64,000 nt of DNA from Clostridiales bacterium (GCA_021202015.1 JAJQDV010000032.1:20463-84462), one strand, 5' to 3'. Positions 1,932-49,707 are shown, counted from the stretch's first letter. Program-made: numbers and translations. The notes: generated by a model not told the origin, from the sequence alone.

Positions 1932-2025
1932 TGCGGACTGCGGCAAGGCTTTTACAATCTGCGATTCGTGCGTCAGGCGGTGCAAGATGCATAAGTTATT
2001 TCATAAAAGAAAGGTGAACATATGA
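1897..2025 (+). CDS. Candidate 42-aa Cys-rich small protein [42 protein letters not shown] (absent from ORF track)
   Basis: Translated by hand. ATG at 1897, CX6CX2CX3C motif, and its TGA (2023-2025) overlaps the ATG (2022) of the NifD-like gene (ATGA coupling). The RBS is weak. Confidence 0.55.
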
Positions 2026-4765: not shown

Positions 4766-4792
4766 GACGAACTTTCCCATGAGATAAAAAAC
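4746..4792 (-). repeat. Truncated inverted copy (A) of the multi-hairpin element, overlapping the NifK-like stop codon
   Basis: AGCGTTTCTTATCTCATAGGACGAACTTTCCCATGAGATAAAAAA is the reverse complement of the copy B first hairpin with 2 mismatches. Confidence 0.8.
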
Positions 4793-4864
4793 ATAAATCG
4801 CTGCATTCCGGAGCGGGGCAGACGATTCACGCGGAAAAACCTGAGAAATAAGGAAAGAGAGGAA

Positions 4865-5332
4865 ATGAACATGGCCTGGAACAGGGAAGAAATAATAAAC
4901 TACATAAAGGACAGCAGAAGTCTGGTGCTGGCGACCGTGGATGAAAACGGATTCGCGCAGCTGCGGTCAATCGGAGGGTATGGTGCGGATGGTCTGCAGG
5001 TGTATTTCGGCACGGCAAAGACGAGCGGGAAGGTGAAACAGATTGAGCAAAACCCTCATGTCGCCCTGCTTTTTCAGCACGAGGGACAGCAGGTTCCGAA
5101 AAATGTCACGCTGTACGGAACGGCGGCTGTTCTGGGAGAGGAAGAGTTTGAATCCGGGGCAGCGGTGATTCGGGAGAGAAGGCCTCAGATTGCTTTTCAG
5201 AAAGAGGAAAGCAATCTATACAGGGTCGATGTTGAAAAAGTAAAAATACTTGATTTCGGAAGTGAGACGAAGATCAAAGAAGTCCGCGCGGAGGAACTGC
5301 GCCGGACAACGGATTCAGGAGGTTCAAAATGA
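4865..5332 (+). CDS. Pyridoxamine 5'-phosphate oxidase-like FMN-binding split-barrel protein
   Basis: LVLATVDENG..LRSI, YFGTAKTSGKVKQIEQNPHVAL pattern; stop overlaps next start (ATGA). Confidence 0.8.
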   Translation: MNMAWNREEIINYIKDSRSLVLATVDENGFAQLRSIGGYGADGLQVYFGTAKTSGKVKQIEQNPHVALLFQHEGQQVPKNVTLYGTAAVLGEEEFESGAAVIRERRPQIAFQKEESNLYRVDVEKVKILDFGSETKIKEVRAEELRRTTDSGGSK

Positions 5333-6396
5333 TAACGATGAAATGGAAAAGTATGAGCGCATTACTGCTTGCGGGAGTTGTTCTGCTTGCGGGCTGCGGC
5401 AGTTCAGACAGCGGTACAACCGCGGAAAGCGGCGGGGAGGAGGGTACGGTCAGTGTGACGGATGAGACAGCGGGCTCTACGAATGAGGAATTCACGGTAC
5501 GCGTAGGCGTAAATTCAGGAGATCAGAATTCAATTCTGAAAATTGTCGATGAGCATACCGGACTGTTCTCAGATAAAGGAATTCATCTGGAAACAACTGA
5601 ATTTGCTGCGGGAATCAATACGATCGACGCCATAGAGCTGGATCAGGTTGATATCGGACTTTTTGCCGATTATGCGGGAGTAAACAGATTCGGAAACACA
5701 TCCGGCAGCTCAGAGCTTCGTGCATTTACGCAAATGACAAAATCAGATGCATGGGATCTGTATGTCAATCCAGATGCGATTCAGAAACCGGAGGATCTGT
5801 ATGACGCCAGTCTGATTTCGTCTGCGGGTGTTGTATTCGAATATTATTATGCAAGGCTTTTTGAAGTGTATGGGCTGGATATATCAGAGGTAACACTTCA
5901 AAATGTTACAAGCACACAGGAAGCACTGGCGCTGGCGGCTGCCGGAACAGGCGATGCCTATTGGTGCAGTTCACAGACGGCTTCCCTTTTTGAAAAATAC
6001 GGATGGGAACCGTTTGTATCCATAAGTGATATAGATGCAGCCATGTACACATTTATGGTGGCCGGAGAGTCATATCTGACGGAACATAGCGACGAGGTGA
6101 TTCGTTTCCTTGAAGTAAGCGAAGAAGGATTTGAATATATTGCGGAGAATCTGGAGCAGGTTGCTCAGTGGGTAGAGGATGATCTGGGACTTGATCAGGA
6201 GCTGTTTATCAGTGATTGGGAAAGCACGGAACATGTATATGAATTTACCCAGGAAGCCTATGATGATCTGGTCAGTGTCAAGGACTGGTGCTATCAGAAC
6301 GGGAAATTTGATACGGATTTTGATATTTCTGATTTTATCAATACAGATGTATTGAAGCAGATGGATCCGGACAGAGTCACGTATACAGCAGAATAA
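5329..6396 (+). CDS. ABC transporter substrate-binding lipoprotein, SsuA/TauA/NMT1 (sulfonate/nitrate) type
   Basis: Signal peptide with lipobox LLAGC; GLFSDKGIHLETTEFAAGINTIDAIELDQVDIG resembles the SsuA-family N-terminal segment. Confidence 0.8.
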   Translation: MITMKWKSMSALLLAGVVLLAGCGSSDSGTTAESGGEEGTVSVTDETAGSTNEEFTVRVGVNSGDQNSILKIVDEHTGLFSDKGIHLETTEFAAGINTIDAIELDQVDIGLFADYAGVNRFGNTSGSSELRAFTQMTKSDAWDLYVNPDAIQKPEDLYDASLISSAGVVFEYYYARLFEVYGLDISEVTLQNVTSTQEALALAAAGTGDAYWCSSQTASLFEKYGWEPFVSISDIDAAMYTFMVAGESYLTEHSDEVIRFLEVSEEGFEYIAENLEQVAQWVEDDLGLDQELFISDWESTEHVYEFTQEAYDDLVSVKDWCYQNGKFDTDFDISDFINTDVLKQMDPDRVTYTAE

Positions 6397-6443
6397 CCGG
6401 CGCCTTTTGCTTTTCGGAATGATGCGGTGAAGGAGATCAAAGG

Positions 6444-7505
6444 ATGTACATAGAATTAAAGCATATTAATAAAACGTTCGGAAATTTCAAAGCATCTGAC
6501 GATGTGAGTTTTGGAATCGAAAAAGGGAAACTGGTCGCGCTTCTGGGACCGAGCGGAAGCGGAAAGACTACCATCCTGCGCATGATTGCCGGTCTGGAGC
6601 ATCAGGACGACGGAGATATCTGTATTGATGGAAAATGTGTGAACCGCGTGCCGGTGCGGGAACGGGAAATCGGATTTGTGTTTCAGAATTACGCTCTTTT
6701 TCCTTATCTGACGGTATACGACAATATTGCATACGGTTTGAAGGCGAGAAAGAAGGATAAAGCGGCTGTCAGGGAGCGGGTCACAGAACTGTTGGAGCTG
6801 GTGGGTCTTCCGGGACTGGAGAAGCGATATCCGTCCCAGCTCTCCGGCGGTCAGAAGCAGCGGGTGGCCTTTGCCAGGGCACTGGCGCCGCAGCCGCATG
6901 TTCTGCTGCTGGACGAACCGTTTGCCGCTATTGACGCGAAGGTTCGCAAAGAACTTCGGAGCTGGCTGAAGGAGATGATCGGAAAAATCGGCATCACCAG
7001 TATCTTTGTGACCCACGACCAGGACGAGGCCGTGGAGGTGGCTGACGAGATCATTGTGACGAATCTGGGTCGGGTGGAGCAGGTGGGAAAACCGACGGAT
7101 ATCTATAAACATCCGCAGACGCTGTTTGTGGCGCAGTTTATCGGGGAATCCACGTTGCTGACCGATTACGATCGGATCAAAGGGTTTGATATCTATAACG
7201 GAAAGCGAACGGCGATCATCCGGCCGGAATTTGTGAAGGTGATAAAGTATGGGTCAGTAAAGCAGTATGAGAGCCTGTATGCGGAAGGCGTGGTGGAGCA
7301 GATCTCCTTTGGTGGAAATTGCATGGAGCTGCTTGTGAATGTAAACGGTATCCGCATAAAAGCCAGGCAGTCTCTGGAAGAAGAACCTTTCGAAAAAGGA
7401 GAAAAGGTAGAGGTGATTGTATACCGCCTGTATGTGGTGGATGAAAATGAAGCGCATCTTTTGCAGAATAAAGGGATGCAGGAGCAGGGAATGTTTTATA
7501 TTTAG
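6444..7505 (+). CDS. cysA: ABC ATP-binding protein, CysA (sulfate/thiosulfate)-type with C-terminal TOBE-like extension
   Basis: Walker A GPSGSGKT, FVFQNYALF, signature LSGGQKQR, Walker B LLLDEPF, VTHDQDEA, FVAQFIGE; 353 aa. Confidence 0.75.
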   Translation: MYIELKHINKTFGNFKASDDVSFGIEKGKLVALLGPSGSGKTTILRMIAGLEHQDDGDICIDGKCVNRVPVREREIGFVFQNYALFPYLTVYDNIAYGLKARKKDKAAVRERVTELLELVGLPGLEKRYPSQLSGGQKQRVAFARALAPQPHVLLLDEPFAAIDAKVRKELRSWLKEMIGKIGITSIFVTHDQDEAVEVADEIIVTNLGRVEQVGKPTDIYKHPQTLFVAQFIGESTLLTDYDRIKGFDIYNGKRTAIIRPEFVKVIKYGSVKQYESLYAEGVVEQISFGGNCMELLVNVNGIRIKARQSLEEEPFEKGEKVEVIVYRLYVVDENEAHLLQNKGMQEQGMFYI

Positions 7506-7524
7506 AAAAGAAAGGAAGAAAAAA

Positions 7525-8748
7525 ATGTCAGAAGCAATCAGCAGAAAAGAATTTTACAGAGAGGTGGAACTGGGAGAACGGATCGGAAATGATGGCATCG
7601 ATTTCGGGGAAGGCGTGCTGGAAAGTCTGGACTTTGAAAATAAGGTTCAGGAGCAGATCCGGGCATGCTTTGATATGAACCATGAGTCTTACGTAAAGAA
7701 TAGGCTTCCTTCCGGGGTCAGACTGCCCAGCAACTATCGTCTGGGGGTTCCTTATCGAAACGGAGCTCCGTTTCATATTGAACTGGAAGGCGGAAGATAC
7801 CTGCTGTACGATAAAAAGAATTTCCTGTATGAGGTAACTTTTATAGAGAAACCTGCGTTTTACAATAAGAAAACGTCAGATGGCGTGAACATGAGCACCA
7901 TCGCCAATGAGATCGGAAAAACGAAAATCTCAGTGGCGTACAGCAATGAATGCGCGCTGCGTGACAAAGGGCTTGACTGCAAATTCTGCAACATTAACGC
8001 CACAAAAGACCGATTTGCACAGCTGCAGGGAATTGAGTGGAAAAACCCGAAACAGATCGCGGAGACCGTGAAAGAGGCCTATGCGGAGGGGTATCAGAGG
8101 ATTACGATTACCGGCGGATTTATACCGGAGCGCAGGGAAGTGGAATATTACATTGATGTGGCGGAGGAAATCCGTGATCTGACCGGACTGGATGATTTTG
8201 GGGGAACCGCGTGTGTGGGAGCCCCGGCGGATCTGAGCGTGATCGAGAAATATAAAGAGGCCGGATACAGCGCCATCTCTTCCAATATGGAGATCTGGGA
8301 TGAAAATATTTTTAAGACGATCTGCCCGGGGAAAGATCAGATCTGCGGAGGACGGCAGAACTGGATAGAGGCGCTGAAAGAGGAAGTGCGGGTATTCGGG
8401 AAAGGTAATGTGAGATCCTTCTTTGTGGCCGGGATTGAGCCGAAATCCACATTGCTCGAGGGAATTGAGTACCTGGCGTCTCTGGGCGTGGTCGCAATCC
8501 CGCTGCACTGGCTTCCGAATCCGGGATCGGAGCTGGAGGGACATCGGGCGCCCAAAGCGGAATGGTACACGGATCTTTATCAGAAGACATACAACATTTT
8601 AAAGAAAAACGGGCTTACGCATCTGGATCTTTACCGCTCCGCAAATGTAGAAAATTCAATTTTTGATTATCTTTATGATATGGACGGGGATCTTCTCCCG
8701 TTCGAGCGCCACAATGCGGATGCCGTACAATTTCTGCCCGCGGTGTAA
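7525..8748 (+). CDS. Radical SAM enzyme with non-canonical CX8CX2C motif
   Basis: ECALRDKGLDCKFC; ITITGG, SSNMEIWD..FKTICPGK. Start placed at ATG 7525 after an AGGAAG RBS. Confidence 0.85.
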   Translation: MSEAISRKEFYREVELGERIGNDGIDFGEGVLESLDFENKVQEQIRACFDMNHESYVKNRLPSGVRLPSNYRLGVPYRNGAPFHIELEGGRYLLYDKKNFLYEVTFIEKPAFYNKKTSDGVNMSTIANEIGKTKISVAYSNECALRDKGLDCKFCNINATKDRFAQLQGIEWKNPKQIAETVKEAYAEGYQRITITGGFIPERREVEYYIDVAEEIRDLTGLDDFGGTACVGAPADLSVIEKYKEAGYSAISSNMEIWDENIFKTICPGKDQICGGRQNWIEALKEEVRVFGKGNVRSFFVAGIEPKSTLLEGIEYLASLGVVAIPLHWLPNPGSELEGHRAPKAEWYTDLYQKTYNILKKNGLTHLDLYRSANVENSIFDYLYDMDGDLLPFERHNADAVQFLPAV

Positions 8749-8759
8749 GGGAAGCGTAA

Positions 8760-9533
8760 ATGGATATGAAGAAAGACAGGAAGATATTTGACAGAATTTT
8801 AAAATGCGGCGTCGTCACATGGATTCTTCTGGTGTTGATCTGGCAGTTCGGATCACTGTTTTACAGTGATGATTTTCTCCCCGGACCGCTTGTAACACTG
8901 GCAGGAGCAGGGAAACTGGTGGCGAACGGCACTCTGTGGGAGGATATCCTGATCAGTCTGCAGCGTGTATTGAAGGGGTGGATTCTGGGAATCGCGGTTG
9001 CGATTCCCCTGGGATTGTGCATCGGATACTTCAAAAAGGTCGGTTATCTTCTGGAGCCTTTTCTGAATTTTTTCCGCTTTATCCCTGCCATCGGTCTTAT
9101 TACGCTGTTTCTGATGTGGTTCGGTGTGGGAGAAACATCCAAGGTCGCCCTGATTTTTTATGCGGTGATTTTTCCGGTGATGATTAATACGATCGCGGGA
9201 GTTAAGACGGTAGACCCGGCTTTGGTGGAAGCGGCCGAGTCCCTGGGTTCTGCGGATGTCCGGACATTTTTCACTGTGATCGTTCCTTCTGCCGTACCGA
9301 ATATTTTTACGGGAGTACGTCTGGGGCTGAGCAGTGCCATCATATGTATTGTGGCGGCTGAGATGCTGGCCGCGTCGGAAGGACTGGGATATCTGATCTA
9401 TACCTCCAGACTATATTACAGAACAGACTGGATCTTTGTCGGCATTTTCACGCTTGGGATTCTCGGGTTCCTGGCTGACAGACTGCTGCAGTTTCTGGGA
9501 AAAAGGTTTCTGAAAAGATTTGGCGTAAAGTGA
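8760..9533 (+). CDS. ABC permease, SsuC/TauC type
   Basis: ISLQRVLKGW..GI, LEPFLNFFRFIPAIG, EAAESLG (EAA motif), IVAAEMLAASEGLGYLI. Confidence 0.9.
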   Translation: MDMKKDRKIFDRILKCGVVTWILLVLIWQFGSLFYSDDFLPGPLVTLAGAGKLVANGTLWEDILISLQRVLKGWILGIAVAIPLGLCIGYFKKVGYLLEPFLNFFRFIPAIGLITLFLMWFGVGETSKVALIFYAVIFPVMINTIAGVKTVDPALVEAAESLGSADVRTFFTVIVPSAVPNIFTGVRLGLSSAIICIVAAEMLAASEGLGYLIYTSRLYYRTDWIFVGIFTLGILGFLADRLLQFLGKRFLKRFGVK

Positions 9534-9703: not shown

Positions 9704-10099
9704 ATGATTTCAACCAAAGGACGTTATGCACTCCGTCTCATGATAGATATTGCCGAACATTCGGACGAAGGCTGTATTCCATTGAAGGACATAGCAGAGC
9801 GCCAGGAGATATCCAAAAAATACCTTGAAATTATTGCGAAGGAGCTGGTAAAAGGTAAGATGATATCCGGCCATGGCGGGCGCGGCGGCGGCTATGTTTT
9901 ATGTCGCCGTCCGGAAGAATACACAGTTGGGGAGATCCTTGAATGGACAGAAGGGTCTCTGGCAACGGTAGCCTGTCTTGCGAAGGATGCGCTCCCCTGC
10001 AGCAGATCCTCTGTTTGCAAAACGCTTCCCCTATGGAAAGAGTTTGACAAAATGACAGTTGATTATTTTTATGGAAAGACGTTGGCTGATCTGCTGTAA
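9704..10099 (+). CDS. Rrf2-family transcriptional regulator (IscR/CymR-like, 3 Cys)
   Basis: MISTKGRYALR, IAERQEISKKYLE, GGRGGGY, C-x7-C-x5-C near the C-terminus. Confidence 0.92.
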   Translation: MISTKGRYALRLMIDIAEHSDEGCIPLKDIAERQEISKKYLEIIAKELVKGKMISGHGGRGGGYVLCRRPEEYTVGEILEWTEGSLATVACLAKDALPCSRSSVCKTLPLWKEFDKMTVDYFYGKTLADLL

Positions 10100-10174
10100 T
10101 CAGTTGACCCTCTGATTTTTCTTTGGCTGCTTCTACAGAGATTACCAGCCTGCTTGTGCAGAAGATCACCAGCC

Positions 10175-10239
10175 TTGACATTGACCTCATTGTAAGTTAT
10201 AATCCCCCTATTCGCCTATACATATAATAGGTGAATAGG
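10175..10239 (+). promoter_or_regulatory. Consensus sigma-A promoter followed by a palindromic operator
   Basis: TTGACA (10175)-17 bp-TATAAT (10198); inverted repeat CCTATTCGCCTAT-N7-ATAGGTGAATAGG directly downstream. Confidence 0.75.
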
Positions 10240-10274
10240 TAAATTGATTTTGCAGAAAAAATGTGAGGTGTGGA

Positions 10275-10805
10275 ATGAAAATGCGCAACAGAAAAATACG
10301 GTTTTTCGCAGGGGTTTTCGCAGCAGCCGCGGTTGTTATGGCCGGTTGTTCTTCCGGTACAGAGCAGGAGGAAACACAGGAACATACATCTGAAGCAGAT
10401 TCGGGCGAAACACAGGAAAATGCATCCGGCACAGCTGAGGACGGAATCGAAATCAATGTAGAAGATATAAGCACCGAGGCCAGCTATTATGATACTGAAA
10501 TTGATGGAACAGATGTCGAAATCTTCGCGGTTCTCGCTTCTGATGGCACAGTTCGTCTTGCAATGAATACCTGCCAGGTTTGCAACGGATCCCCCTATGC
10601 TTATTTTGAACAGGAAGGCGATGATTTTGTCTGCCAGAACTGCGGGAATCACTTTTCATCCGATGAAATCGGGCTTACAGCCGGAGGCTGCAATCCCGTC
10701 CCGATTACGGAGGATGATTACACCGAAGAAAACGGGATCATTACGGTTTCCGACTCTTTTCTGGAAGAAAACGCATATCGTTTTTCCAACTGGAAACAGT
10801 TTTAA
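10275..10805 (+). CDS. DUF2318 (FtrD-like, Cys-rich) lipoprotein
   Basis: Lipobox MAGC; NTCQVC...VCQNCG...GGCNPVP motif. Confidence 0.8.
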   Translation: MKMRNRKIRFFAGVFAAAAVVMAGCSSGTEQEETQEHTSEADSGETQENASGTAEDGIEINVEDISTEASYYDTEIDGTDVEIFAVLASDGTVRLAMNTCQVCNGSPYAYFEQEGDDFVCQNCGNHFSSDEIGLTAGGCNPVPITEDDYTEENGIITVSDSFLEENAYRFSNWKQF

Positions 10806-10818
10806 AGGGGGGACTTAA

Positions 10819-12102
10819 GTGAGTAAGGTTGTTTTTCACGTTACCGGCATGACCTGCTCCGGTTGTGAGCGCCGACTGGAAGGAGCTGTATCAGCACTTC
10901 AAGGCGTACATTCCGTAACTGCGGATTACAGCAGAGGGGAATTAACAGCTGAATTCAATCCTCCCTGCACGGAAAGCGTCATCATTGAAACAATTCAAAA
11001 GACCGGTTACGGAGTTGCGAAAAACGCAAAAAAAGCCCGGGATACGGTGGCTGTTCTGGTTATTATTCTCGGAATCTATGTTATCGCCCGGCAGATGGGA
11101 TGGCTGGAGATATTTCAGAACATCCCGACGATCAGTGAAGAACGAATGAGTTATCTTGCTCTGTTCGCGATTGGCCTGCTGACAAGCGTCCATTGTATTG
11201 CCATGTGCGGAGGATTAAATCTGGCTCAGAGTATTTCTTCCGGAGATATAAAACCCGTGCGTCGCAGTATCTTATACAATCTCGGGCGGCTGACCAGTTA
11301 CACTTTGATCGGCGGTATCCTGGGTTTTATCGGTGAAAAAGCTGCCATTACCTTACAGGTGAGGGGTTTGATCGGTCTGATCGCCGGCGGGGTTATGCTG
11401 CTCATGGGCGTCAATATGCTGGGAGGCCTTTCCCTGTCTGTTCGCCTGTTTCCGAAGCTGTCCGGGAAACTTTCTGCCGGAATACAGAGCGTGGGGAAAC
11501 ATAGTTCCTTTGCGACAGGTCTGGCAAATGGTTTGATGCCCTGCGGGCCGTTGCAGTCCATGCAGATTTACGCAATCGCCAGCGGCAGTATGCTGGCCGG
11601 AGCGCTGTCCATGTTTTCCTTTTGTTCAGGCACGATTCCCCTTGTCTTTGCATTTGGCCTGGCGGCGGGGATGCTGAAAATGCACTGGCGGCAGCGAATG
11701 CTTCAGGTCGGGTCTGTCCTGCTGCTTATCATGGGAATCTTTATGATACAGAACAATCTTGTCCTGACAGGCTTTAATGTCTCATCGACAGTTGCTGAAA
11801 CAGATGGGACTGTCGTTTCAACCATTGATGGAGACGTCCAGTATGTTACTACAGAACTTCATGCCAACGGCTACGACGATATTCAGGTCGTAGCAGGGAT
11901 TCCTGTCATATGGACGATAGATGTTGATGAGAATAATCTGAACGGCTGCAATAATGAGATTGTGTTGTCGGCGTTTGACCAGCAGGTGAAGCTTATCGCA
12001 GGCGAAGTTGTCATAGAGTTTACACCTGAGGAAGAAGGAACATATACATATTCCTGTTGGATGGGAATGTTAAAAAATACGATTACAGTCGTTGAGAATT
12101 AA
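10819..12102 (+). CDS. HMA domain + DsbD_2/TauE-like membrane domain + cupredoxin-like domain protein
   Basis: GMTCSGC HMA motif; GLLTSVHCIAMCGG and GLMPCGPLQ membrane motifs; C-terminal GCNNEI..YSCWMGM. Confidence 0.85.
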   Translation: MSKVVFHVTGMTCSGCERRLEGAVSALQGVHSVTADYSRGELTAEFNPPCTESVIIETIQKTGYGVAKNAKKARDTVAVLVIILGIYVIARQMGWLEIFQNIPTISEERMSYLALFAIGLLTSVHCIAMCGGLNLAQSISSGDIKPVRRSILYNLGRLTSYTLIGGILGFIGEKAAITLQVRGLIGLIAGGVMLLMGVNMLGGLSLSVRLFPKLSGKLSAGIQSVGKHSSFATGLANGLMPCGPLQSMQIYAIASGSMLAGALSMFSFCSGTIPLVFAFGLAAGMLKMHWRQRMLQVGSVLLLIMGIFMIQNNLVLTGFNVSSTVAETDGTVVSTIDGDVQYVTTELHANGYDDIQVVAGIPVIWTIDVDENNLNGCNNEIVLSAFDQQVKLIAGEVVIEFTPEEEGTYTYSCWMGMLKNTITVVEN

Positions 12103-12300: not shown

Positions 12301-13629
12301 ATGGGTTTTCTGCTGGACGAACGAGAATTAAAAAAATATATTTCCAAAGGGGAGTTCGGACTGGAGAAGGAGAGCCTGCGAGTGGATGCGCAGGGTTACC
12401 TCTCTCATACGCCGCATCCTTTCCCGGGTGACAGCAGGATTGACAGGGATTTCTGTGAGAATCAGGTAGAACTGATTACGGGCGTGAGTGACAGTATTGA
12501 AAAGGTGTGGGCGGAGCTGGCCGGTCTCTATCGCGAGACGGCGGACTGCCTGCTGAAACTGGAAACGGGCAGGGAGTATCTCTGGCCTTTTTCCAACCCT
12601 CCCTATGTCCGCGGCGAGGAGGATATTCCGATTGCGCAATTTTTCGGAAGCCAGACGGGAAAGGGCGTTTACCGGGAATATCTGGCCGGGAAATACGGCA
12701 AGAAAAAAATGCTTTATTCGGGGATACACTATAATTTTTCCTTTTCAGAGGAATTGCTGCGGGCGGATTTTGTCTGCCACAGAGAGAAGAAACCCGTTGA
12801 TCATGGAAAGGATGAAGAGAAGGCATACCGTGACTATAAGGATCGGATATATCTGGAACTTGGTAAGAAAGCCGTCAAATACAGCTGGCTGATCGTTTAT
12901 CTGACAGCGGCGAGTCCTGTCCTGGACGGTTCGTATTATCGGGCCGGCGATCTGGATGAAACGGTGGTCAGCAGTTACGCTTCGCCGCGGTGCAGCGAGA
13001 TCGGCTACTGGAATTCTTTTGTGCCGATTCTGGATTTTACGAGTCTGAACGGTTACGCGGACAGCATCGACGGTTATGTGAAGAACCGGATGATCACCGC
13101 ATCCACGGAGCTTTATTATCCGGTGCGCTTAAAAGCGCGCGGCGCGAATACGACGGATAACCTCCGGAAAAACGGCGTCAGCCATGTGGAACTGCGGATG
13201 CTGGACTTAAATCCGCTCTGCCCGGTGGGAATCCGGCGGCAGGATCTTAAGTTTATCCATCTGCTGCTGGTCTGGCTGATGCTTCAGGAGGATGAGGCAT
13301 TCGGGACGACGGAGCAGACGATCGCGATCCGCAATATGAAGGAGGCGGCGCGTTTTGCACCGGAAGAGATTCAGATCGAGTCCGGCTGGTATCAGATCCG
13401 GCCGGTGCGGGAGGCTGCGGCGGAAATTCTGAATGATATGACAGAGAAGCTGCCGGGATATTTTCCCGGTCAGGAGGCTGCGGTACTGGAGTGCCTGAAT
13501 TCTCAGCTGGAAAAAGCGGAGGATCCGTCGAAACGATATGCGGCGCAGATCCGGGAGCGGTTTCAGAAAGGGTATGTGAAGAAGGGAATGCGGCTGGCGG
13601 TAGAATATGCGAAGGGATTTCAAAATTAG
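12301..13629 (+). CDS. gshA: Glutamate--cysteine ligase (GshA domain, no fused GshB domain)
   Basis: FGLEKESLRV, DFCENQVELIT, WPFSNPP, SGIHYNFSF, ELYYPVRLK, GVSHVELRMLDLNP. Confidence 0.8.
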   Translation: MGFLLDERELKKYISKGEFGLEKESLRVDAQGYLSHTPHPFPGDSRIDRDFCENQVELITGVSDSIEKVWAELAGLYRETADCLLKLETGREYLWPFSNPPYVRGEEDIPIAQFFGSQTGKGVYREYLAGKYGKKKMLYSGIHYNFSFSEELLRADFVCHREKKPVDHGKDEEKAYRDYKDRIYLELGKKAVKYSWLIVYLTAASPVLDGSYYRAGDLDETVVSSYASPRCSEIGYWNSFVPILDFTSLNGYADSIDGYVKNRMITASTELYYPVRLKARGANTTDNLRKNGVSHVELRMLDLNPLCPVGIRRQDLKFIHLLLVWLMLQEDEAFGTTEQTIAIRNMKEAARFAPEEIQIESGWYQIRPVREAAAEILNDMTEKLPGYFPGQEAAVLECLNSQLEKAEDPSKRYAAQIRERFQKGYVKKGMRLAVEYAKGFQN

Positions 13630-13670
13630 GAACAGACCGTGTAATATAGCACTACGAGGTTTATGTTGTC

Positions 13671-14441
13671 ATGTGTGAATTATTTGGCGTATGTGCACGC
13701 CGGCCGGTAGAGTGCCGGGATTATTTAAAAGAGTTTTACCGACACAGCCCTCAGCATCCGAACGGATGGGGGCTGGCAATCCTGGACGGGAACAGTGCGG
13801 CCATTGAGAAAGAACCGTTAGAGGCGGAGAAAAGCAATTATCTTCACGAGCGGCTGACGGTTCCGGTGGAGGGCAGACTGCTTCTGGCGCATATCCGTTA
13901 CGCGACCATCGGGAATGTGGAGTATAAAAACTGCCATCCGTTTTCGGGTGTGGACTGTACCGGACGGCGGTGGACCCTGATCCACAATGGGACGATTTTT
14001 GAGTATGAGCCGCTGCATCGTTATGTGGAGCGCCAGCGTGGTGATACGGACAGCGAAAGGATTTTTCTTTTCCTCATGGATGAGGTGAACAGAAGGACCA
14101 GGTCAGAGGGTAAGCTGGACGCGGAAAAACGTTTTCGGTTGCTGGATGAACTGATCGGCGGCATGGCGACGGGCAATAAGCTGAATCTTCTGATCAGCGA
14201 CGGGGAATGCATGTATGTACATACGAATTATGAGAATTCTCTGCACTTTCGCCAACGGAAAGGGCAGGTGTTTTTTTCCACGGAGCCGCTCGGACGGGAT
14301 GCCTGGGAATGTGTGCCGTTGACTACGCTTCTGGCCTGGCGGAACGGGGAACTTCTGTACACAGGGACAGATCACGGACAGGTATTTGAGGATAATGAGG
14401 AGAATATGAAGTTCCTGTATCAGATTTTCTCGAATTTGTAA
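13671..14441 (+). CDS. Class II glutamine amidotransferase-like (Ntn hydrolase; YafJ/EgtC-like)
   Basis: N-terminal MCELFG (Cys2 nucleophile), HPNGWG, AHIRYATIG, NCHPF, HNGTI, GDTDSE. Confidence 0.88.
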   Translation: MCELFGVCARRPVECRDYLKEFYRHSPQHPNGWGLAILDGNSAAIEKEPLEAEKSNYLHERLTVPVEGRLLLAHIRYATIGNVEYKNCHPFSGVDCTGRRWTLIHNGTIFEYEPLHRYVERQRGDTDSERIFLFLMDEVNRRTRSEGKLDAEKRFRLLDELIGGMATGNKLNLLISDGECMYVHTNYENSLHFRQRKGQVFFSTEPLGRDAWECVPLTTLLAWRNGELLYTGTDHGQVFEDNEENMKFLYQIFSNL

Positions 14442-14489
14442 GGAACTGATAAGATTCATTCTTTAACAGTTCCTGAGGGGAGGTTACCC

Positions 14490-15881
14490 ATGATAGATGA
14501 AAAAACAGTGCGCGAGCACCTGTATCGAAAATATATTGAACCAACAAAAAAGGAACGGGAGCTTTATATCGGCATTGAACTGGAACTGCCCATTGTGAAT
14601 CTGGACAGAAAGGCGGTGGATTTTGCCAATGTCCATCAGGCTGCGCGGGAATTTGTCGAGCATTTTCAGTTTCGCCCGACCGGATGGGATGACGAGGGAA
14701 ATATGTGCGCTGCCGAATGTCCGAAAACAGGGGATATTCTTTCTTTTGACTGTTCTTATAATAACCTGGAGCTTTCTATGGGAAGGGAAAAAGAACTTCA
14801 TACGCTGAATAAACGGTTTTCCGGATATTACCGTTATCTGAATAAGTTGCTGGGGCGTTACCATTACACCCTGACCGGGATGGGGATCAATCCATATCGG
14901 ATTTATAATCATAATGTTCCCATTGAAAACGGGCGATACCGGATGCTTTTTCATCATCTGGGTCTCCGGGATAAATATCAGCAGGAAGAGCCGATGTATT
15001 TTCATGAGTACCCGGCGTTCGGAACATTCTGCAGCGCGTCCCAGGTACAGCTGGATGTGAGTTATGACGATCTGCTGCTGACAGTGAATGTGTTTTCGCG
15101 TCTGGAACCGATCACCGCGCTGCTTTTCGGAAACTCCGTCCTGTTGGGGGAGCATGAGGATCTGCTCTGCAGCCGGGATATGCTCTGGGAAAACAGTTCG
15201 CAGGGAATCAATCCGCACAATATCGGCATGTTTGACTGCCATTTTGATACGGTGGAGGATTTGCTGTCGTACATAGAGTCCACGAGTATCTATTGTGTTG
15301 AGCGCGAGGAAAAATATATTAATTTCCGGCCTATGTGTGTCCGGGATTATTTTCAGAAAGAATCGGTTCAGGGAGAATACTTTGCGGACGGCGGTTATCA
15401 TGAGATCGATGTGATTCCTCAGATTGAGGATCTGGCCTGGCTTCGAACCTTTAAGTTCGAGGATCTGACATTTCGCGGAACGGTCGAGTTTCGGAGCGCG
15501 TGCTGCCAGCCGGTTTCCGACAGTATGGCGGTCGCGGCTTTTTACGTGGGACTGAAGGAAAAGCTGTCGGAGCTGTCCGGGATTCTGGCAAATGACCGCG
15601 TGATCTATCACCATGGCTATAACCAGATGGAGCTGCGGAAACTCTTTGTGAAGAGAGAATTGCCGGGGTTTGTGGATGCCGACAGCCTCTATCGTCTGAC
15701 CGGCCGGATTGTGAAGCTGGCCGAAGAAGGACTGCGGGAGAGAGGGTTTGGCGAGGAGTGTTATCTTAGGCCTTTGTATGGCCGCGTAAAATCGAGAGAA
15801 AATCCGGCCATGCGGATGCTGAGGGAGCGTGACGCGGGGCGCAGCATAGAAGAGATTATTCTGGAATATCGGGAATTGTGA
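14490..15881 (+). CDS. GCS2-family glutamate--cysteine/amine ligase (EgtA-like)
   Basis: IGIELELP, NNLELS, GMGINP, SASQVQLD, RGTVEFRS..Q. Confidence 0.8.
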   Translation: MIDEKTVREHLYRKYIEPTKKERELYIGIELELPIVNLDRKAVDFANVHQAAREFVEHFQFRPTGWDDEGNMCAAECPKTGDILSFDCSYNNLELSMGREKELHTLNKRFSGYYRYLNKLLGRYHYTLTGMGINPYRIYNHNVPIENGRYRMLFHHLGLRDKYQQEEPMYFHEYPAFGTFCSASQVQLDVSYDDLLLTVNVFSRLEPITALLFGNSVLLGEHEDLLCSRDMLWENSSQGINPHNIGMFDCHFDTVEDLLSYIESTSIYCVEREEKYINFRPMCVRDYFQKESVQGEYFADGGYHEIDVIPQIEDLAWLRTFKFEDLTFRGTVEFRSACCQPVSDSMAVAAFYVGLKEKLSELSGILANDRVIYHHGYNQMELRKLFVKRELPGFVDADSLYRLTGRIVKLAEEGLRERGFGEECYLRPLYGRVKSRENPAMRMLRERDAGRSIEEIILEYREL

Positions 15882-18860: not shown

Positions 18861-18910
18861 GCAGTGAAAACAGCGACAGAGTAAGAGTCCTGTGGTTTTG
18901 GCGGCAGAAA

Positions 18911-19002
18911 AATAACCTGTTATAGATACAAGCTATAATGGGTTATTTTTTTTATGTATTAGACACTCGGATTTTGGCGTGTTAATATATTGCATATAAA
19001 AT
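18911..19002 (+). promoter_or_regulatory. Palindromic operator (TATAG-N7-CTATA) and promoter upstream of the metY-like gene
   Basis: AAAATAACC..TATAGATACAAGCTATA..GGTTATTTT; TTGGCG-17 bp-TAAAAT at 18974-19002. Confidence 0.55.
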
Positions 19003-19066
19003 CGGTATATAAACTTGGTTTTTAATATGAAAGATGAAGAAACTGATATTCCTGTAAGAGGGGATT

Positions 19067-20314
19067 GTGATGAAATTTAACACGACTTTGTTACACGGGA
19101 CGAAGGAAATCCCGTTTTTCGGGGATGCAGAATCGGGGGCGACTCAGCCGCCGGTCTGTCAGTCCAGCGCCTTCCGGCATACATCGGCGAAGCGCATGGA
19201 GCAGATTTTTCACAATAAAGCGCCGGGGTTTTCATATTCAAGGCTGGGAAATCCGACGGTGGAGGCATTTGAAAAGCGGATGACCGTTCTGGAGGGCGGG
19301 ATCGCCAGTGTGGCCTGCGCCTCCGGCATGGCGGCGGTTTTTAATTCGTTGATGAATATTCTGCGGGCGGGAGATGAGATTGTTTCCAGTGCCAGTTTGT
19401 ACGGCGGGACGATCGATCTGTTCCGGGAACTGAAAGCCTTCGGAATCACAGTGCATTACGTGGAAAATAATGATTGGAAAGCGTTTACGGCAAATACGAA
19501 TGAACACACCCGATGTTACTTTGCGGAAACCATCGGAAATCCCAAACTGGACGTCACGGATATCCGGTGTCTGGCAGATCTGGCTCACAGTAAGGGGTTG
19601 CCGCTTTTTGTGGATAATACAGCAGCGACGGCTTATCTTGTAAAACCGATCGAACTGGGAGCGGACATTGTTATCAATTCTACCTCCAAATATGTCAACG
19701 GCAGCAGCAATTCCATCAGCGGCGTCATCACGGATGGAGGAGGGTTTCGCTGGGATACGAAAAAATATCCGGGATTGCGCGATTTTGCGAAGTTCGGCCC
19801 ATTTGCTTATACTGTGAAGCTGCGCAACGGATTTTTTCGCAACACAGGCGGATGCCTGTCCCCGCAAAATGCGTTTTACAATATCATCGGTATGGAGACG
19901 CTGGGACTTCGGATGGAGCGGATCTCTGACAATGCGCTGGCGCTGGCGCGGTGGCTGCAAAAGGAATTTCCGGATATTACGGTAAATTATCCCGGACTGG
20001 AGACGAATCCCTGTTATGAGCTTGCAAAGGAACAGTTTGGCAGTCATTTCGGCGGGATTCTTACAATCCGCGTCGGAAGCAGGGAACGGGCCTATCGAAT
20101 TCTGGACAGTCTGAAGATTCCGCTGCAGGTGTCGAACATTGGAGATACCAAAACACTTGTGATTCACCCGGAGTCAACGCTGGCGGTGCACAGCACAGAA
20201 GAGGAGAAAGCCGCGGCGGGTGTATACGATGACCTGATCCGGGTGAGCGTCGGGATTGAGGATGCGGAGGATCTCATGAAAGATTTCGGGAGAGCAATCC
20301 GGGAAATGAAATGA
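19067..20314 (+). CDS. metY: O-acetylhomoserine aminocarboxypropyltransferase/sulfhydrylase (Cys/Met PLP family)
   Basis: YSRLGNPT, ASGMAA, ETIGNP, VDNT, NSTSKY (PLP Lys), NIGDTKTLVIHP, LIRVSVGIED. Confidence 0.8.
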   Translation: MMKFNTTLLHGTKEIPFFGDAESGATQPPVCQSSAFRHTSAKRMEQIFHNKAPGFSYSRLGNPTVEAFEKRMTVLEGGIASVACASGMAAVFNSLMNILRAGDEIVSSASLYGGTIDLFRELKAFGITVHYVENNDWKAFTANTNEHTRCYFAETIGNPKLDVTDIRCLADLAHSKGLPLFVDNTAATAYLVKPIELGADIVINSTSKYVNGSSNSISGVITDGGGFRWDTKKYPGLRDFAKFGPFAYTVKLRNGFFRNTGGCLSPQNAFYNIIGMETLGLRMERISDNALALARWLQKEFPDITVNYPGLETNPCYELAKEQFGSHFGGILTIRVGSRERAYRILDSLKIPLQVSNIGDTKTLVIHPESTLAVHSTEEEKAAAGVYDDLIRVSVGIEDAEDLMKDFGRAIREMK

Positions 20315-20324
20315 AAGGAATGGA

Positions 20325-20579
20325 ATGAATATGAGCACAACTTATGAGATTGACGAGACAGTTGACATTACCGACGTGGTATGTCCGGTCACTTTTGTAA
20401 AAGCAAAGGTGGCGCTGGAAGAACTGGATGAGGGTCAGATCCTGTCGATTCACATGAATGACGGGGAAGCGGTGCAGAATGTCCCGCGAAGCATCAAAGA
20501 GGAGGGACATCAGATTTTGAAGCTTTTGAAAAATGAGGACGACACCTATGATCTGATCGTGAGAAAGGCGGGTGATTAG
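20325..20579 (+). CDS. TusA/SirA-family sulfurtransferase
   Basis: VDITDVVCPVTFVKAKVALEEL CP motif; VQNVPRSIKEEGH. Confidence 0.9.
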   Translation: MNMSTTYEIDETVDITDVVCPVTFVKAKVALEELDEGQILSIHMNDGEAVQNVPRSIKEEGHQILKLLKNEDDTYDLIVRKAGD

Positions 20580-20582
20580 ATT

Positions 20583-20900
20583 ATGGCGAAGAGATGGACG
20601 GAGGCGGATTTTGATACGGAAGCATTCGCCGGTGAAAAACTGACCATCGTGGATTTTTATTCTGACAGATGCCTGCCGTGCAGGGCTCTTTCACCGGTGT
20701 TGGCAGAACTGGAGGAGACCTATGCAGATCAGCTGATTGTGGGCAAGGTGAATGCGGTGTATGAGAGCGGGCTGGTTTCCCGCTGGGAGGTAGCTTCGGT
20801 GCCGACGGTTTTATTTCTGAAAAACGGAAAAGAGATTGCGAGATTCAGCGGAGTGCAGAAGAAGGATGACCTGATCCGGGAAATTGAGAAGAATCTGTAG
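20583..20900 (+). CDS. Thioredoxin
   Basis: VDFYSDRCLPC (CXXC), VGKVN, VASVPT. Confidence 0.9.
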   Translation: MAKRWTEADFDTEAFAGEKLTIVDFYSDRCLPCRALSPVLAELEETYADQLIVGKVNAVYESGLVSRWEVASVPTVLFLKNGKEIARFSGVQKKDDLIREIEKNL

Positions 20901-20990
20901 CCGTTCCTGCATGTTGACAGAAGATAATTCATATTGTGATGTAAAATAATTTTTGATAAAATACAGAAATCAGAAAGGATTGATATTATC

Positions 20991-21197
20991 ATGAACATTA
21001 TTGTAGCAGGGGAAAAGAAAACTTATGAGGAAGGCATTACTGTCGAGAAGCTCATTGAGGAGGAAAAAGTGGAGACGCCGCAGTATGTAACCGTTTCCGT
21101 CAATGAAGAATTTGTGCAGAGAGCGGATTTTGCCACCCGTCAGCTGGCGGAAGGGGACGAGGTGGAGTTTTTGTATTTTATGGGAGGCGGAAGATAA
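20991..21197 (+). CDS. ThiS/HcyS-type sulfur carrier protein with capped C-terminus (GGG-R)
   Basis: VTVSVNEEFV..LAEGDEVEFLYFMGGGR; stop overlaps ThiF start (TAATG). Confidence 0.9.
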   Translation: MNIIVAGEKKTYEEGITVEKLIEEEKVETPQYVTVSVNEEFVQRADFATRQLAEGDEVEFLYFMGGGR

Positions 21198-22003
21198 TGG
21201 CTTTCACGAATGAACAGCTGGAGCGCTATTCCAGACATATTATACTGAAAGAAATCGGCGTGAAAGGTCAGAAGAAGCTTTTAAATGCGAAGGTGCTGAT
21301 CATCGGCGCCGGTGGACTGGGGGCGCCTGCCGCCATGTATCTGGCTGCAGCCGGAGTCGGAACGATCGGGATCGCCGACGCGGATGAGGTGGATCTCTCA
21401 AATCTGCAGCGCCAGATCATCCACGGAACGCCGGATGTGGGCAAGGCGAAGGTGCAGTCCGCAAAAGAGACGATGAACCGGATGAATCCGGATGTGACAG
21501 TCAACACGTACCGGACGTTTGTGGCGTCTGACAATATTCTGGATCTGATCCGTAATTATGATTTTATTATTGACGGGACAGATAATTTTCCGGCCAAGTT
21601 TCTGATCAACGATGCCTGTGTGATGGCGAAAAAGCCGTTCTCCCATGCGGGGATCATCCGTTTCCAGGGGCAGCTGATGACATATGTGCCGGGAGAGGGG
21701 CCGTGTTATCGATGTGTATTTCGCGACCCGCCGCCAAAGGATGCGGTACCGACCTGTAAACAGGCCGGTGTGGTGGGCGCCATGGGCGGCGTGATCGGCA
21801 GCCTTCAGGCCATGGAGGCAATCAAATATATCGTGGGGCAGGGCGAGCTTCTGACGGGGACGCTTCTGACTTATGACGCATTGAGCATGACGTTCCGTAA
21901 GGTACCGCTGCCGAAGGATACTTCCGACTGTCCCGTCTGCGGAAATCATCCGACGATCACACGGCTGATTGATTATGAACAGACGGAGTGTGAAGGAATA
22001 TAA
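21197..22003 (+). CDS. ThiF/MoeB/HcyF-family adenylyltransferase
   Basis: ERYSRHI, IIGAGGLG, DEVDLSNLQRQI, DGTDNF, CYRC and CPVC zinc motifs. Confidence 0.93.
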   Translation: MAFTNEQLERYSRHIILKEIGVKGQKKLLNAKVLIIGAGGLGAPAAMYLAAAGVGTIGIADADEVDLSNLQRQIIHGTPDVGKAKVQSAKETMNRMNPDVTVNTYRTFVASDNILDLIRNYDFIIDGTDNFPAKFLINDACVMAKKPFSHAGIIRFQGQLMTYVPGEGPCYRCVFRDPPPKDAVPTCKQAGVVGAMGGVIGSLQAMEAIKYIVGQGELLTGTLLTYDALSMTFRKVPLPKDTSDCPVCGNHPTITRLIDYEQTECEGI

Positions 22004-22005
22004 AT

Positions 22006-22431
22006 ATGAAGATCCAGATTAAAGAAGACGACATAAGGATGATGATTACTTTTGCAAAAGAAAGAACTCCGGAGGAGGCCTGCGGCCTGATTGCCGGGAC
22101 GGAGTCAGAGGGGATCCGGCGCATTGAGAAAGTATATTTTCTGACAAACACGGATCACAGCAGCGAACATTTTTCGCTGGATCCGGCGGAGCACTTAAGT
22201 GCCGTAAAAGACATGCGGCGTTTGGGATATATCCCGCTCGGGAACTGGCATTCTCATCCGCAGACGCCGTCCCGTCCCTCGGCGGAGGATATCCGGTTGG
22301 CTTATGACAGCACGGCGAGCTATCTGATCCTGTCTCTGGAGAATGAGGATGAGCCTGTTCTTAATTCTTTTCATGTAGAGAATGGCAATGCAGAGAAAGA
22401 AGAACTTATCGTGTTTCGTACAGGAGAGTGA
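22006..22431 (+). CDS. JAB/Mov34 (M67) metalloprotease, HcyD/Mec-like
   Basis: EEACG; WHSHPQTPSRPSAED (HXH-X7-S-X2-D JAMM motif). Confidence 0.92.
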   Translation: MKIQIKEDDIRMMITFAKERTPEEACGLIAGTESEGIRRIEKVYFLTNTDHSSEHFSLDPAEHLSAVKDMRRLGYIPLGNWHSHPQTPSRPSAEDIRLAYDSTASYLILSLENEDEPVLNSFHVENGNAEKEELIVFRTGE

Positions 22432-22612
22432 GGAACACGGGAGAACACAGGTCTGGAATACGATATTTTTACGTTTTGCGTCTGTCAGAAATGGCAGGCG
22501 CATTCTTTCATAGATTGACTTGTCGCGGAAGCCTGTGATATAATTTTCCACGGTATTTATGATTTTGTATAGCAGTCTTTGCCCCCGTTATGGGGGAAAT
22601 AAAGGGGCTTTT

Positions 22613-42907: not shown

Positions 42908-42979
42908 TTGCAATTTGATATTTCTGCCGTTATAATGTGAGATGAATGTCAACCATTTGAGGTGGAAAGAAGGTATACA
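42908..42979 (+). promoter_or_regulatory. bioB promoter and possible BirA-type operator
   Basis: TTGCAA-17 bp-TATAAT; TGTCAACC-N17-GGTATACA overlaps the RBS, with a spacer longer than usual. Confidence 0.45.
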
Positions 42980-44011: not shown

Positions 44012-44014
44012 CTT

Positions 44015-49634: not shown

Positions 49635-49707
49635 GGAGATATAGCTCAGCTGGGAGAGCATCTGCTTGACGTGTAGAGGGTCACAGGTTCGAGTCCTGCT
49701 ATCTCCA
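49635..49707 (+). tRNA. tRNA-Val (anticodon GAC)
   Basis: GGAGATA/TATCTCC acceptor stem, TAGCTCAGCTGGGAGAGC D-arm, TCTGC-TTGACGT-GTAGA anticodon arm, GGTTCGAGTCC T-arm; promoter TTGACA-17-TAAAGT at 49558; CCA not encoded. Confidence 0.93.

Follow-up and report, generated by a model that had tools for sequence, protein, structure and literature searches.

A predicted protein-thiocarboxylate homocysteine operon without a sulfite reductase gene nearby in a Clostridiales bacterium, and its relation to an upstream nitrogenase-like cluster

A protein-thiocarboxylate pathway to homocysteine, consisting of HcyS, HcyF, HcyD and MetY, was reportedly described in Wolinella succinogenes by Krishnamoorthy and Begley in 2011, and its carrier protein is said to bear an Ala cap after GG. 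A kindred arrangement serves cysteine synthesis in Mycobacterium tuberculosis, where CysO, CysM, Mec+ and MoeZ comprise a thiocarboxylate carrier, a JAB hydrolase and a pyridoxal phosphate (PLP) sulfhydrylase. The Krishnamoorthy and Begley pathway is cited in passages of PMC5764234 and PMC8191291, and a passage of the latter describes Wolinella MetY as a user of carrier-protein thiocarboxylate. The corresponding gene neighbourhood, ThiS-JAB-E1-SirA-Sir-OAHS, was defined as type 4e by Iyer, Burroughs and Aravind in 2006 from Wolinella, Geobacter metallireducens, Desulfitobacterium hafniense and several Clostridia, with SirA/TusA proposed as the stand-in for the absent rhodanese domain (PMC1779556). 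Here we analyse a locus of this kind, metY-tusA-trx-thiS-thiF-JAB, in a 64,000-nucleotide stretch of a Clostridiales bacterium genome (GCA_021202015.1, JAJQDV010000032.1:20463-84462; hereafter the window, with positions counted from its first letter). By its predicted products the operon is of the HcyS/HcyF/HcyD/MetY type, and it is a variant of this known and widespread pathway that has no sulfite reductase (Sir) gene within the window.

The six-gene operon and its nearest relatives

The six genes at 19070-22431 on the + strand look like a transcription unit of their own, since they are tightly packed and predicted promoter-like and terminator-like sites lie at the two ends. The gene order given in a preliminary description of this DNA is confirmed by the open reading frames and by their Pfam and NCBIfam matches:

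18906-18952, +: terminator-like hairpin, 20-pair stem plus T-run; ends the upstream cytidylate-kinase-like gene and sets the operon apart
18960-18988, +: promoter-like site for the operon, TAGACA-17-TAATAT with TG extension; a consensus match only
19070-20314, +: metY, O-acetylhomoserine (OAH) sulfhydrylase, PLP enzyme; Cys_Met_Meta_PP (PF01053) 3e-108, NCBIfam OAH_OAS_sulfhy 6e-126
20315-20324, no strand: metY/tusA junction, 10 bp; site of a 971-bp sirS segment in the closest relatives
20325-20579, +: tusA, SirA/TusA sulfur carrier; TusA PF01206 4e-19; active-site Cys in VVCPVT
20583-20900, +: trx, operon-specific thioredoxin with CLPC replacing CGPC; Thioredoxin PF00085 6e-22
20991-21197, +: thiS, hcyS-like carrier of 68 amino acids; ThiS PF02597 2e-12, TIGR01683 above cutoff
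21197-22003, +: thiF, hcyF-like E1 adenylyltransferase of 268 amino acids; ThiF PF00899 2e-87
22006-22431, +: JAB, hcyD-like JAB/MPN+ (M67) metalloprotease of 141 amino acids; Prok-JAB PF14464 1.5e-22
22477-22502, +: GC-rich terminator-like hairpin closing the operon, 11-pair stem with 6 GC pairs

From metY to JAB the intergenic spacings are 10, 3 and 90 bp, a 1-bp overlap (thiS/thiF) and 2 bp, with the metY start taken as the ATG at 19070 called by gene callers on an identical Logan contig (19067 being an alternative start). The JAB gene is followed by a phosphoesterase gene and then by unrelated genes. The arrangement is no chance juxtaposition, because dozens of species share this gene set in this order.

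Sequence motifs are well preserved throughout the operon. MetY keeps the STSKY lysine motif, and ThiF has GAGGLG and two CxxC pairs, with ThiF as its sole domain and no rhodanese domain. Both JAB motifs are intact, namely EEACG and HSHPQTPSRPSAED (HxHx7SxxD). The thioredoxin belongs to a family with the motif C-[VIL]-[PA]-C, in which the CxxC is kept by all members (46/46).

The carrier ends in ...EFLYFMGGGR, a GGG followed by an Arg cap. The preliminary description had held that such a cap calls for a JAB protease, and the comparison with homologues supports this: among about 70 distinct carrier homologues the YFMGGG is invariant and is followed by 1-6 variable residues (R in 20, C in 14, Q in 12, and also QR, RV, RYVVY, SYGIN, SDAFYR and others), so that the cap is family-wide yet variable. 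A conserved core with a freely varying tail is what is expected of a propeptide, and this pattern implies that the tail would be removed by the co-encoded JAB protein.

The closest solved structures of the carrier (2k5p/3cwi, structural-genomics 'ThiS' entries ending in FMGGGK, E 4e-11) and of the JAB protein (2kks, also from structural genomics, E 4e-39) come from species named in PMC1779556. The W. succinogenes MetY structure 3ri6 is among the top Protein Data Bank (PDB) matches of the window MetY (E 1e-84); it is not the top match, and we have rejected the view that the window enzyme is specifically Wolinella-like. Altogether, the masked carrier C-terminus, the intact JAB protein, the rhodanese-free E1 accompanied by SirA/TusA, and the operon-encoded OAH sulfhydrylase agree with the type 4e neighbourhood, and they support the earlier assignment to the HcyS/HcyF/HcyD/MetY type. 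The Sir and the sulfate activation and transport genes that belong to that neighbourhood are missing from the 64 kb of the window.

These absences have been checked in two ways, within the 64 kb of a 132-kb contig that our gene searches cover. A tblastn search of the window with the relatives' SirS, SirL, AprA, AprB, CysD, CysN, sulfate-binding protein and siroheme synthesis proteins returned nothing (best E 0.07-0.7), and it also revealed no sirS pseudogene remnant in the window. Pfam analysis of the remaining window reading frames gave housekeeping genes and a prophage remnant, with no NIR_SIR, cysteine desulfurase or rhodanese domain; no DsrE was found either. Exact-protein look-ups beyond the window reached only short Logan contigs (SRR15221315; 3.9, 10 and 13 kb) and added no new sulfur genes. 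The earlier statement that the window holds no sir, APS reductase or cysDN is thus true, and it is an unusual condition, since 38 of 51 comparable loci have sirS.

How the gene went missing is suggested by the nearest relatives with genomic context, three Clostridiales loci from metagenome-assembled genomes (MAGs), designated L010/L033 and L014 in our survey below. Amino-acid identities between them and the window are 78-80% for JAB, 94% for ThiF, 96% for ThiS, 91-93% for TusA and 88-89% for MetY, and the loci are collinear at 81% nucleotide identity. Window positions 19057-20304 align with L010 2732-3981, and 20314-22004 with L010 4953-6663, so that the 971 bp between them in L010 (3982-4952, sirS plus spacers) have no counterpart in the window; the sirS segment of L014 is likewise absent. 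In addition, aprAB-cysDN follow JAB in the L010/L014 relatives and are missing after the window JAB. Since sirS sits at that same position in many distant species, its absence is more parsimoniously read as a loss in the window's lineage than as a gain elsewhere.

The remaining genes are not decaying. Pairwise ratios of nonsynonymous to synonymous substitution rates (dN/dS) are 0.06 for metY and 0.05 for tusA (both against L010), 0.21 for trx, 0.01-0.10 for thiS, 0.04 for thiF (against L008) and 0.10-0.16 for JAB, values (0.01-0.21) which indicate that all six genes are under purifying selection.

Two observations on operon layout may be recorded here. In the closest Sir-containing relatives (L010 5853-10001, L011 3201-7349), an insert of about 3.3 kb separates thiF from JAB and carries genes for a TrxB-like flavoprotein, a further ThiF and, on the opposite strand, a PLP enzyme; the first thiF of L011 appears in the gene calls as two fragments. 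The hairpin region 5' of the window metY (18906-18964) matches, at 84-88% identity, a stretch that lies just 5' of JAB in L010 (9866-9924) and L014 (5592-5648), and would therefore be one terminator-like element placed at differing operon positions.

Sulfur supply and the locus in other species

To place the locus, 80 loci around JAB homologues, one per species, were mapped with a panel of reference proteins. In loci with the whole cluster in view, a small sulfite reductase gene, sirS, lies within 6 kb in 38 of 51; its product has about 287 amino acids with NIR_SIR and ferredoxin domains. Two gene orders were seen, metY-sirS-tusA-trx-thiS-thiF-JAB and metY-thiS-thiF-JAB-sirS-tusA. The tusA gene directly follows sirS on its 3' side in 40 of the 49 sirS loci, on either side of thiS-thiF-JAB, a fixed pairing that raises the idea that the small Sir may hand its product to TusA rather than release free sulfide. 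A trx gene is found in 35 of these 49 loci and aprAB and/or cysDN in 24; a sulfate ATP-binding cassette (ABC) transporter, genes for siroheme synthesis, or a glycyl-radical isethionate-lyase/taurine module often lie nearby. In Anaerostipes a second Sir of 511 amino acids adjoins the operon.

Thirteen loci in which no sirS was detected share another front-end, complete or partial, some of their contigs being short. Its genes encode the shell protein of an SrpI-type encapsulin, an N-terminally extended cysteine desulfurase, a serine acetyltransferase, a fusion of MoaD, E1 and rhodanese, another JAB protein, either MetY or CysK, and a rhodanese-TusA-DsrE (Rhd-TusA-DsrE) protein. An encapsulin together with a cysteine desulfurase is what most Sir-less loci have in place of Sir. 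Loci joined to this gene set are L051 (2045-11791), L027, L028, L043, L061, L065, L068, L082, L084 and L092; the other loci of this group are L023, L052 and L053. Two more loci, L037 and L059, have only the Rhd-TusA-DsrE protein of this front-end. The composition suggests that an encapsulated desulfurase may feed two carrier systems. Since trx occurs in both Sir-type and desulfurase-type loci, it appears to be tied to ThiS/TusA chemistry and not to Sir. The operon type would thus have exchangeable sulfur sources, with TusA, often together with Trx, as the putative constant link to the carrier. Other lineages have evidently reduced it differently, judging from the gene content of two loci from Lachnospira and Eubacterium MAGs (L050 and L055, 6986-10402), which have metY-metY-tusA-JAB with no thiS, thiF or sir nearby.

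We lean, with modest confidence, towards the reading that the window operon is an intact HcyS/HcyF/HcyD/MetY-type system that would make homocysteine from OAH via a protein thiocarboxylate, having lost its sirS and receiving reduced sulfur in trans. The JAB protein would trim the Arg cap to expose the Gly C-terminus of ThiS, which ThiF would then adenylate. Because ThiF has no rhodanese domain, a TusA persulfide is the likely sulfur donor to the adenylated carrier, with the operon thioredoxin reducing the resulting acyl-disulfide to the thiocarboxylate, ThiS-COSH; as an alternative, free bisulfide might attack the adenylate directly. MetY would couple ThiS-COSH to OAH and, after an S-to-N acyl shift, JAB would release homocysteine. 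These steps are modelled on the Wolinella and M. tuberculosis precedents and on TusA biology.

Since sirS and aprAB-cysDN are absent, the sulfur most likely enters in trans, and two supplies can be envisaged. Sulfide could come from a Sir encoded elsewhere, which would also be needed for the sulfite expected from an isethionate-reductase-like enzyme encoded upstream in the window (see below); the presence of that sulfonate system argues for some Sir in the genome. Alternatively, TusA could be loaded with persulfide from a housekeeping cysteine desulfurase; persulfide supply through TusA is the likely solution of the Sir-less relatives, since these carry the SrpI-type encapsulin, the cysteine desulfurase and Rhd-TusA-DsrE.

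Several considerations weigh against the reading we prefer. MetY might use free sulfide directly, and the window enzyme is not specifically closest to that of Wolinella. Pairwise dN/dS cannot date the loss of sirS, and a very recent inactivation would escape notice. The sulfur source is judged from the 64 kb of genome in view, and all functional statements, those on the Clostridial members included, rest on homology and gene context.

An unlikely but serious alternative is that sulfane sulfur comes solely from a housekeeping cysteine desulfurase through a TusA persulfide, and not from sulfite or sulfide, which would turn the operon into a cysteine-to-homocysteine shuttle. TusA is the canonical acceptor of the IscS persulfide in Escherichia coli, tusA has been retained here under strong purifying selection (dN/dS 0.05), a cysE-like gene lies in the window, and an encapsulated cysteine desulfurase accompanies ThiS-ThiF-JAB-TusA in the thirteen Sir-less relatives, Rhd-TusA-DsrE alone in two more. 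However, no desulfurase, rhodanese or DsrE is encoded within the 64 kb, the window operon belongs by sequence to the Sir-type and not to the desulfurase-type lineage, and the Isr-like sulfonate system again speaks for a Sir somewhere in the same genome. It is much less probable that the carrier system is a dead remnant left after the loss of sirS and aprAB-cysDN, with MetY alone still useful, by direct sulfhydrylation from environmental sulfide. Gut habitats are sulfide-rich, L050 and L055 do have metY-metY-tusA-JAB without thiS and thiF, and thiF is split or interrupted in L010/L011; against this stand six intact reading frames with all catalytic motifs kept, their overlapping or tight spacing preserved, and the low dN/dS values, including those for thiS (0.01) and thiF (0.04).

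It is more improbable still that metY is a mere neighbour of a carrier with a different product, be it cysteine made by a CysO/CysM-type route, thiamine or a thio-cofactor. ThiS/ThiF/JAB modules do serve several products, and CysK-JAB2-MoaD/E1-Rhd modules adjoin the family in L028, but the operon starts with metY both here and in most relatives, and the capped carrier and JAB protease match HcyS/HcyD. For the CysO/CysM/Mec+ cysteine pathway, the acceptor encoded beside the carrier is MetY (PF01053), and the operon has no cysM or cysK, that is, no PALP-fold CysM. For thiamine ThiS/ThiF, the carrier C-terminus is capped and the operon lacks thiG and thiH; a ThiH-like match at 42962 proved to be BioB, and BioB and TcdA at 42962-44767 are unrelated to the operon.

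The upstream nitrogenase-like cluster

Upstream of the operon lies a cluster of nitrogenase-like (NFL) genes, which the preliminary description had proposed as the source of the operon's sulfur. It is listed here as context only:

5-1003: metK, preceding the NFL cluster
1056-9533, +: NFL cluster, isethionate-reductase-like nitrogenase family, comprising the genes below
1056-1931, +: nflH, nitrogenase-like subunit
2022-3428, +: nflD, nitrogenase-like subunit
3428-4765, +: nflK, nitrogenase-like subunit
4865-5332, +: PNPOx-like protein
5329-6396, +: SsuA-like binding protein
6444-7505, +: CysA-like ATPase
7525-8748, +: radical S-adenosylmethionine (radical-SAM) protein, NCBIfam variant_rSAM NF045502, 5e-135; not NifB
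8760-9533, +: TauC/SsuC-like permease

Isethionate reductase (Isr) has been characterized by a single conserved Cys74 in IsrD, by Cys12, Cys37 and Cys99 in IsrK, by the lack of ligands for the iron-molybdenum cofactor (FeMo-co) and by a radical-SAM partner unrelated to NifB; this Cys signature was reported as unique to Isr, which requires the SsuCAB transporter and occurs in Bacillota, Spirochaetes and intestinal bacteria (PMC11423573). Sulfite has been proposed as its product (PMC11423573; review PMC13474568).

Among PDB entries, NflD and NflK match best to Rhodospirillum rubrum MarD and MarK (9FMG; E 2e-35 and 2e-58), which is so because no Isr structure has been solved. NflD has three Cys in total, of which only Cys75, equivalent to NifD Cys88, is conserved and none lies upstream of it. 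At the position of MarD Cys187 (NifD Cys154) there is a Thr, and at the MarD L-cluster ligands Cys270 and His429 there are Asp and Thr, respectively, in the MAFFT alignment, phmmer giving Glu at His429. In 67 homologues, Thr or Ser occupies the Cys154 position in 58 and Asn or Asp the Cys270 position in 59. NflK keeps Cys12, Cys37 and Cys100, the equivalents of NifK Cys70, Cys95 and Cys153. The methylthio-alkane reductase (MAR) system (MarBHDK, NFL Group IV-C), suggested by the best PDB match, was rejected, as NflD does not have the three P-cluster Cys of MarD or its L-cluster ligands and the radical-SAM protein is not NifB-like. With one conserved Cys in the D subunit and three in K, no FeMo-co ligands, a B component of radical-SAM type only and an Ssu/Tau-type ABC transporter, NflDK by their sequences carry the signature of IsrDK (NFL Group IV-F), not that of MarDK.

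Given the IsrDK-type Cys pattern, the expected product of the NFL enzyme is sulfite, not a thiol of use to MetY or TusA, and a Sir would therefore still be needed for the six-electron reduction that precedes thiocarboxylate formation. The earlier proposal had been different: the nitrogenase-like enzyme would release reduced sulfur or a thiol, to be handed on by TusA/Trx to ThiS or used by MetY directly, so that no Sir is needed and the operon forms the downstream half of the nitrogenase-like system. The two clusters do share a strand, their region has many sulfur genes (metK, gshA-like, cysE-like), and neither a Sir nor a dedicated desulfurase is encoded in the window. They are, however, 14.3 kb apart, with eleven genes and a terminator-like hairpin between them; the intervening genes are unrelated and encode an Rrf2 regulator, FtrD-like and DsbD/HMA proteins, two glutamate-cysteine-ligase-like proteins, an EgtC-like amidotransferase, a divergent, opposite-strand LysR, a MATE pump and a cytidylate-kinase-like protein.

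Nor was a shared regulatory signal found. Rfam searches of the window at gathering score returned a single tRNA (the gene at 49635-49707) and no riboswitch, and E-value scans of the metY leader and of the region upstream of metK, recovered from L012, gave nothing. As a candidate for a shared operator, a k-mer comparison of ten upstream regions yielded A/T-rich or ribosome-binding-site-like similarities only. A strong palindrome near the Rrf2 gene, at 10207-10239, occurs nowhere else in the window; it is an inverted repeat of 13 bp with one mismatch (CCTATTCGCCTAT / ATAGGTGAATAGG), placed between the Rrf2-family regulator gene and the FtrD-like and DsbD-HMA genes of 9704-12102.

Co-occurrence was examined from both sides. 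Around JAB, neither an NFL gene (nflH, nflD or nflK) nor the radical-SAM gene was seen within 10 kb in any of the 80 loci, a radius smaller than the distance in the window and hence a partial test. A second survey comprised 80 NFL-centred metagenome loci, 44 of which have at least 10 kb of total flank; thiocarboxylate or Sir genes are present in 3 of these 44, and Sir in all three. L121 (7703-20180) has nflHDK-rSAM-ABC-metY-thiF-tusA-JAB-sir on one strand, in L110 (525-21028) the NFL genes are accompanied by an IslA-like glycyl radical enzyme and, on the other strand, by sirS-tusA-x-thiF-thiS, and L138 has the NFL genes with Sir and TusA. By a rough reckoning, 3/44 exceeds the chance expectation for a single-copy cluster (about 1% per 20 kb of a 3-Mb genome), and it fits a picture in which sulfite-producing modules lie near Sir and the carrier system. 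A reasonable reading is that the Isr-like enzyme is one of several interchangeable sulfite suppliers, as islAB or aprAB-cysDN are elsewhere, and no substitute for Sir.

We regard a Sir-free relay from the nitrogenase-like enzyme to the carrier or to MetY as unsupported and very improbable. The proximity of NFL and thiocarboxylate genes in L110, L121 and L138 favours such a link, yet a Sir accompanies them each time, and tusA and trx are ordinary operon members in Sir-bearing relatives with no NFL genes nearby. Feeding of OAH sulfhydrylase by methanethiol is established for MAR-type enzymes (PMC13474568), which makes direct use of a thiol product sound for those enzymes, but the equivalents of MarD Cys187, Cys270 and His429 are absent from NflD, and the radical-SAM protein, the transporter and the proposed product all point to Isr. 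At most, the NFL cluster is an indirect supplier of sulfite. There is likewise only a very slight chance that the Isr-like enzyme, TusA and the operon thioredoxin together pass sulfonate-derived sulfur to ThiS without Sir, for example by reduction of a TusA-bound S-sulfonate or a kindred intermediate; if true, this would be a Sir-independent route from organosulfonate to homocysteine.

In the NFL-centred loci, the radical-SAM gene adjoins nflHDK in 50 of 80, and metK, the PNPOx-like gene and one to four variant radical-SAM paralogues recur beside NFL genes in many metagenome contigs. Together with its metK, PNPOx and radical-SAM partners, the Isr-like nitrogenase homologue occurs widely in these bacteria, and the Isr-like cluster is probably of greater biological interest than the missing sirS.

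Other features of the window and comparison with described systems

Some further features of the window may be noted. Between the two sulfur clusters, at 12301-15881, lie genes for a GshA-like glutamate-cysteine ligase, a second ligase of GCS2 type and, between them, an EgtC-like class-II amidotransferase, which suggests that a gamma-glutamyl thiol is made or turned over. The segment 38222-42759 has low GC content and reversed GC skew and encodes a truncated terminase large subunit, an AAA_24 ATPase and a YhcG-type nuclease, which suggest a prophage remnant. At 62682-63650 lies a gene for a long-form serine O-acetyltransferase (CysE/EpsC-like) that is 54% identical to the acetyltransferase of the encapsulin/desulfurase loci.

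Operons of this type are common among gut and rumen Clostridia. A database search with the JAB protein gives 5331 homologues (E <= 1e-5), mainly from Lachnospiraceae and Clostridiales MAGs, and a pattern scan of one genome per GTDB species found at least 572 stretches encoding a JAB relative; because of these numbers, the thiocarboxylate route appears to be a very common way of making methionine in these organisms. It is absent from most pathway databases (PMC5764234). The pathway is thus known and widespread but experimentally neglected, the Sir-less form being the variant described here. Its front-ends seem interchangeable, namely a small Sir accompanied by genes either for sulfate activation or for taurine/isethionate lyase, or an encapsulated cysteine desulfurase, and the window represents a form with no front-end in cis. 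This bears on the prediction of amino-acid auxotrophy and of sulfur-source use in uncultured gut bacteria, and it points to TusA and a dedicated thioredoxin as the putative core of sulfur delivery to the carrier.

Compared with described Isr systems, the window cluster shares with the Rhodobacter capsulatus IsrBHDK and SsuCAB proteins the Cys pattern (NflD C75 versus IsrD C74; NflK C12/37/100 versus IsrK C12/37/99), the lack of FeMo-co and L-cluster ligands, a radical-SAM protein that is not NifB-like and a sulfonate-type ABC transporter; this likeness is one of Cys pattern and gene content set against the published description. It differs from the Rhodobacter system in its gene order (H-D-K...B) and in having metK and the PNPOx-like gene as conserved neighbours; these two genes and the radical-SAM paralogues are absent from the Rhodobacter system as described.

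As for the operon, the closest likeness is to the metY-sirS-tusA-trx-thiS-thiF-JAB operons of Anaerostipes sp. 494a (L002), L010 and Eubacterium oxidoreducens (L004), with which it agrees in genes, order, motifs and carrier C-terminus. It differs from the sirS operons of Lachnospiraceae and Oscillospiraceae in having no sirS and no flanking aprAB-cysDN, sulfate ABC transporter, siroheme or islAB-taurine modules. It resembles the encapsulin/desulfurase loci in lacking Sir and in combining thiS-thiF-JAB with TusA, there sometimes with trx; those loci have another gene order and a sulfur source in cis (cysteine desulfurase, Rhd-TusA-DsrE, E1-rhodanese), whereas the window has none.

With the M. 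tuberculosis CysO system the window operon shares the logic of a thiocarboxylate carrier, a JAB hydrolase and a PLP sulfhydrylase, but its acceptor enzyme is MetY (Cys_Met_Meta_PP fold) rather than CysM (PALP fold), its E1 has no rhodanese domain, and its predicted product is homocysteine. With the Wolinella HcyS/HcyF/HcyD/MetY system it has in common a capped ThiS-like carrier, JAB, a rhodanese-free E1, SirA/TusA and MetY in a single operon. It departs from that type in having an operon-specific thioredoxin (CxPC), in having no sulfite reductase or sulfate-activation genes in or near the operon, and in its cap, which is an Arg after GGG where the Wolinella carrier reportedly has an Ala after GG.

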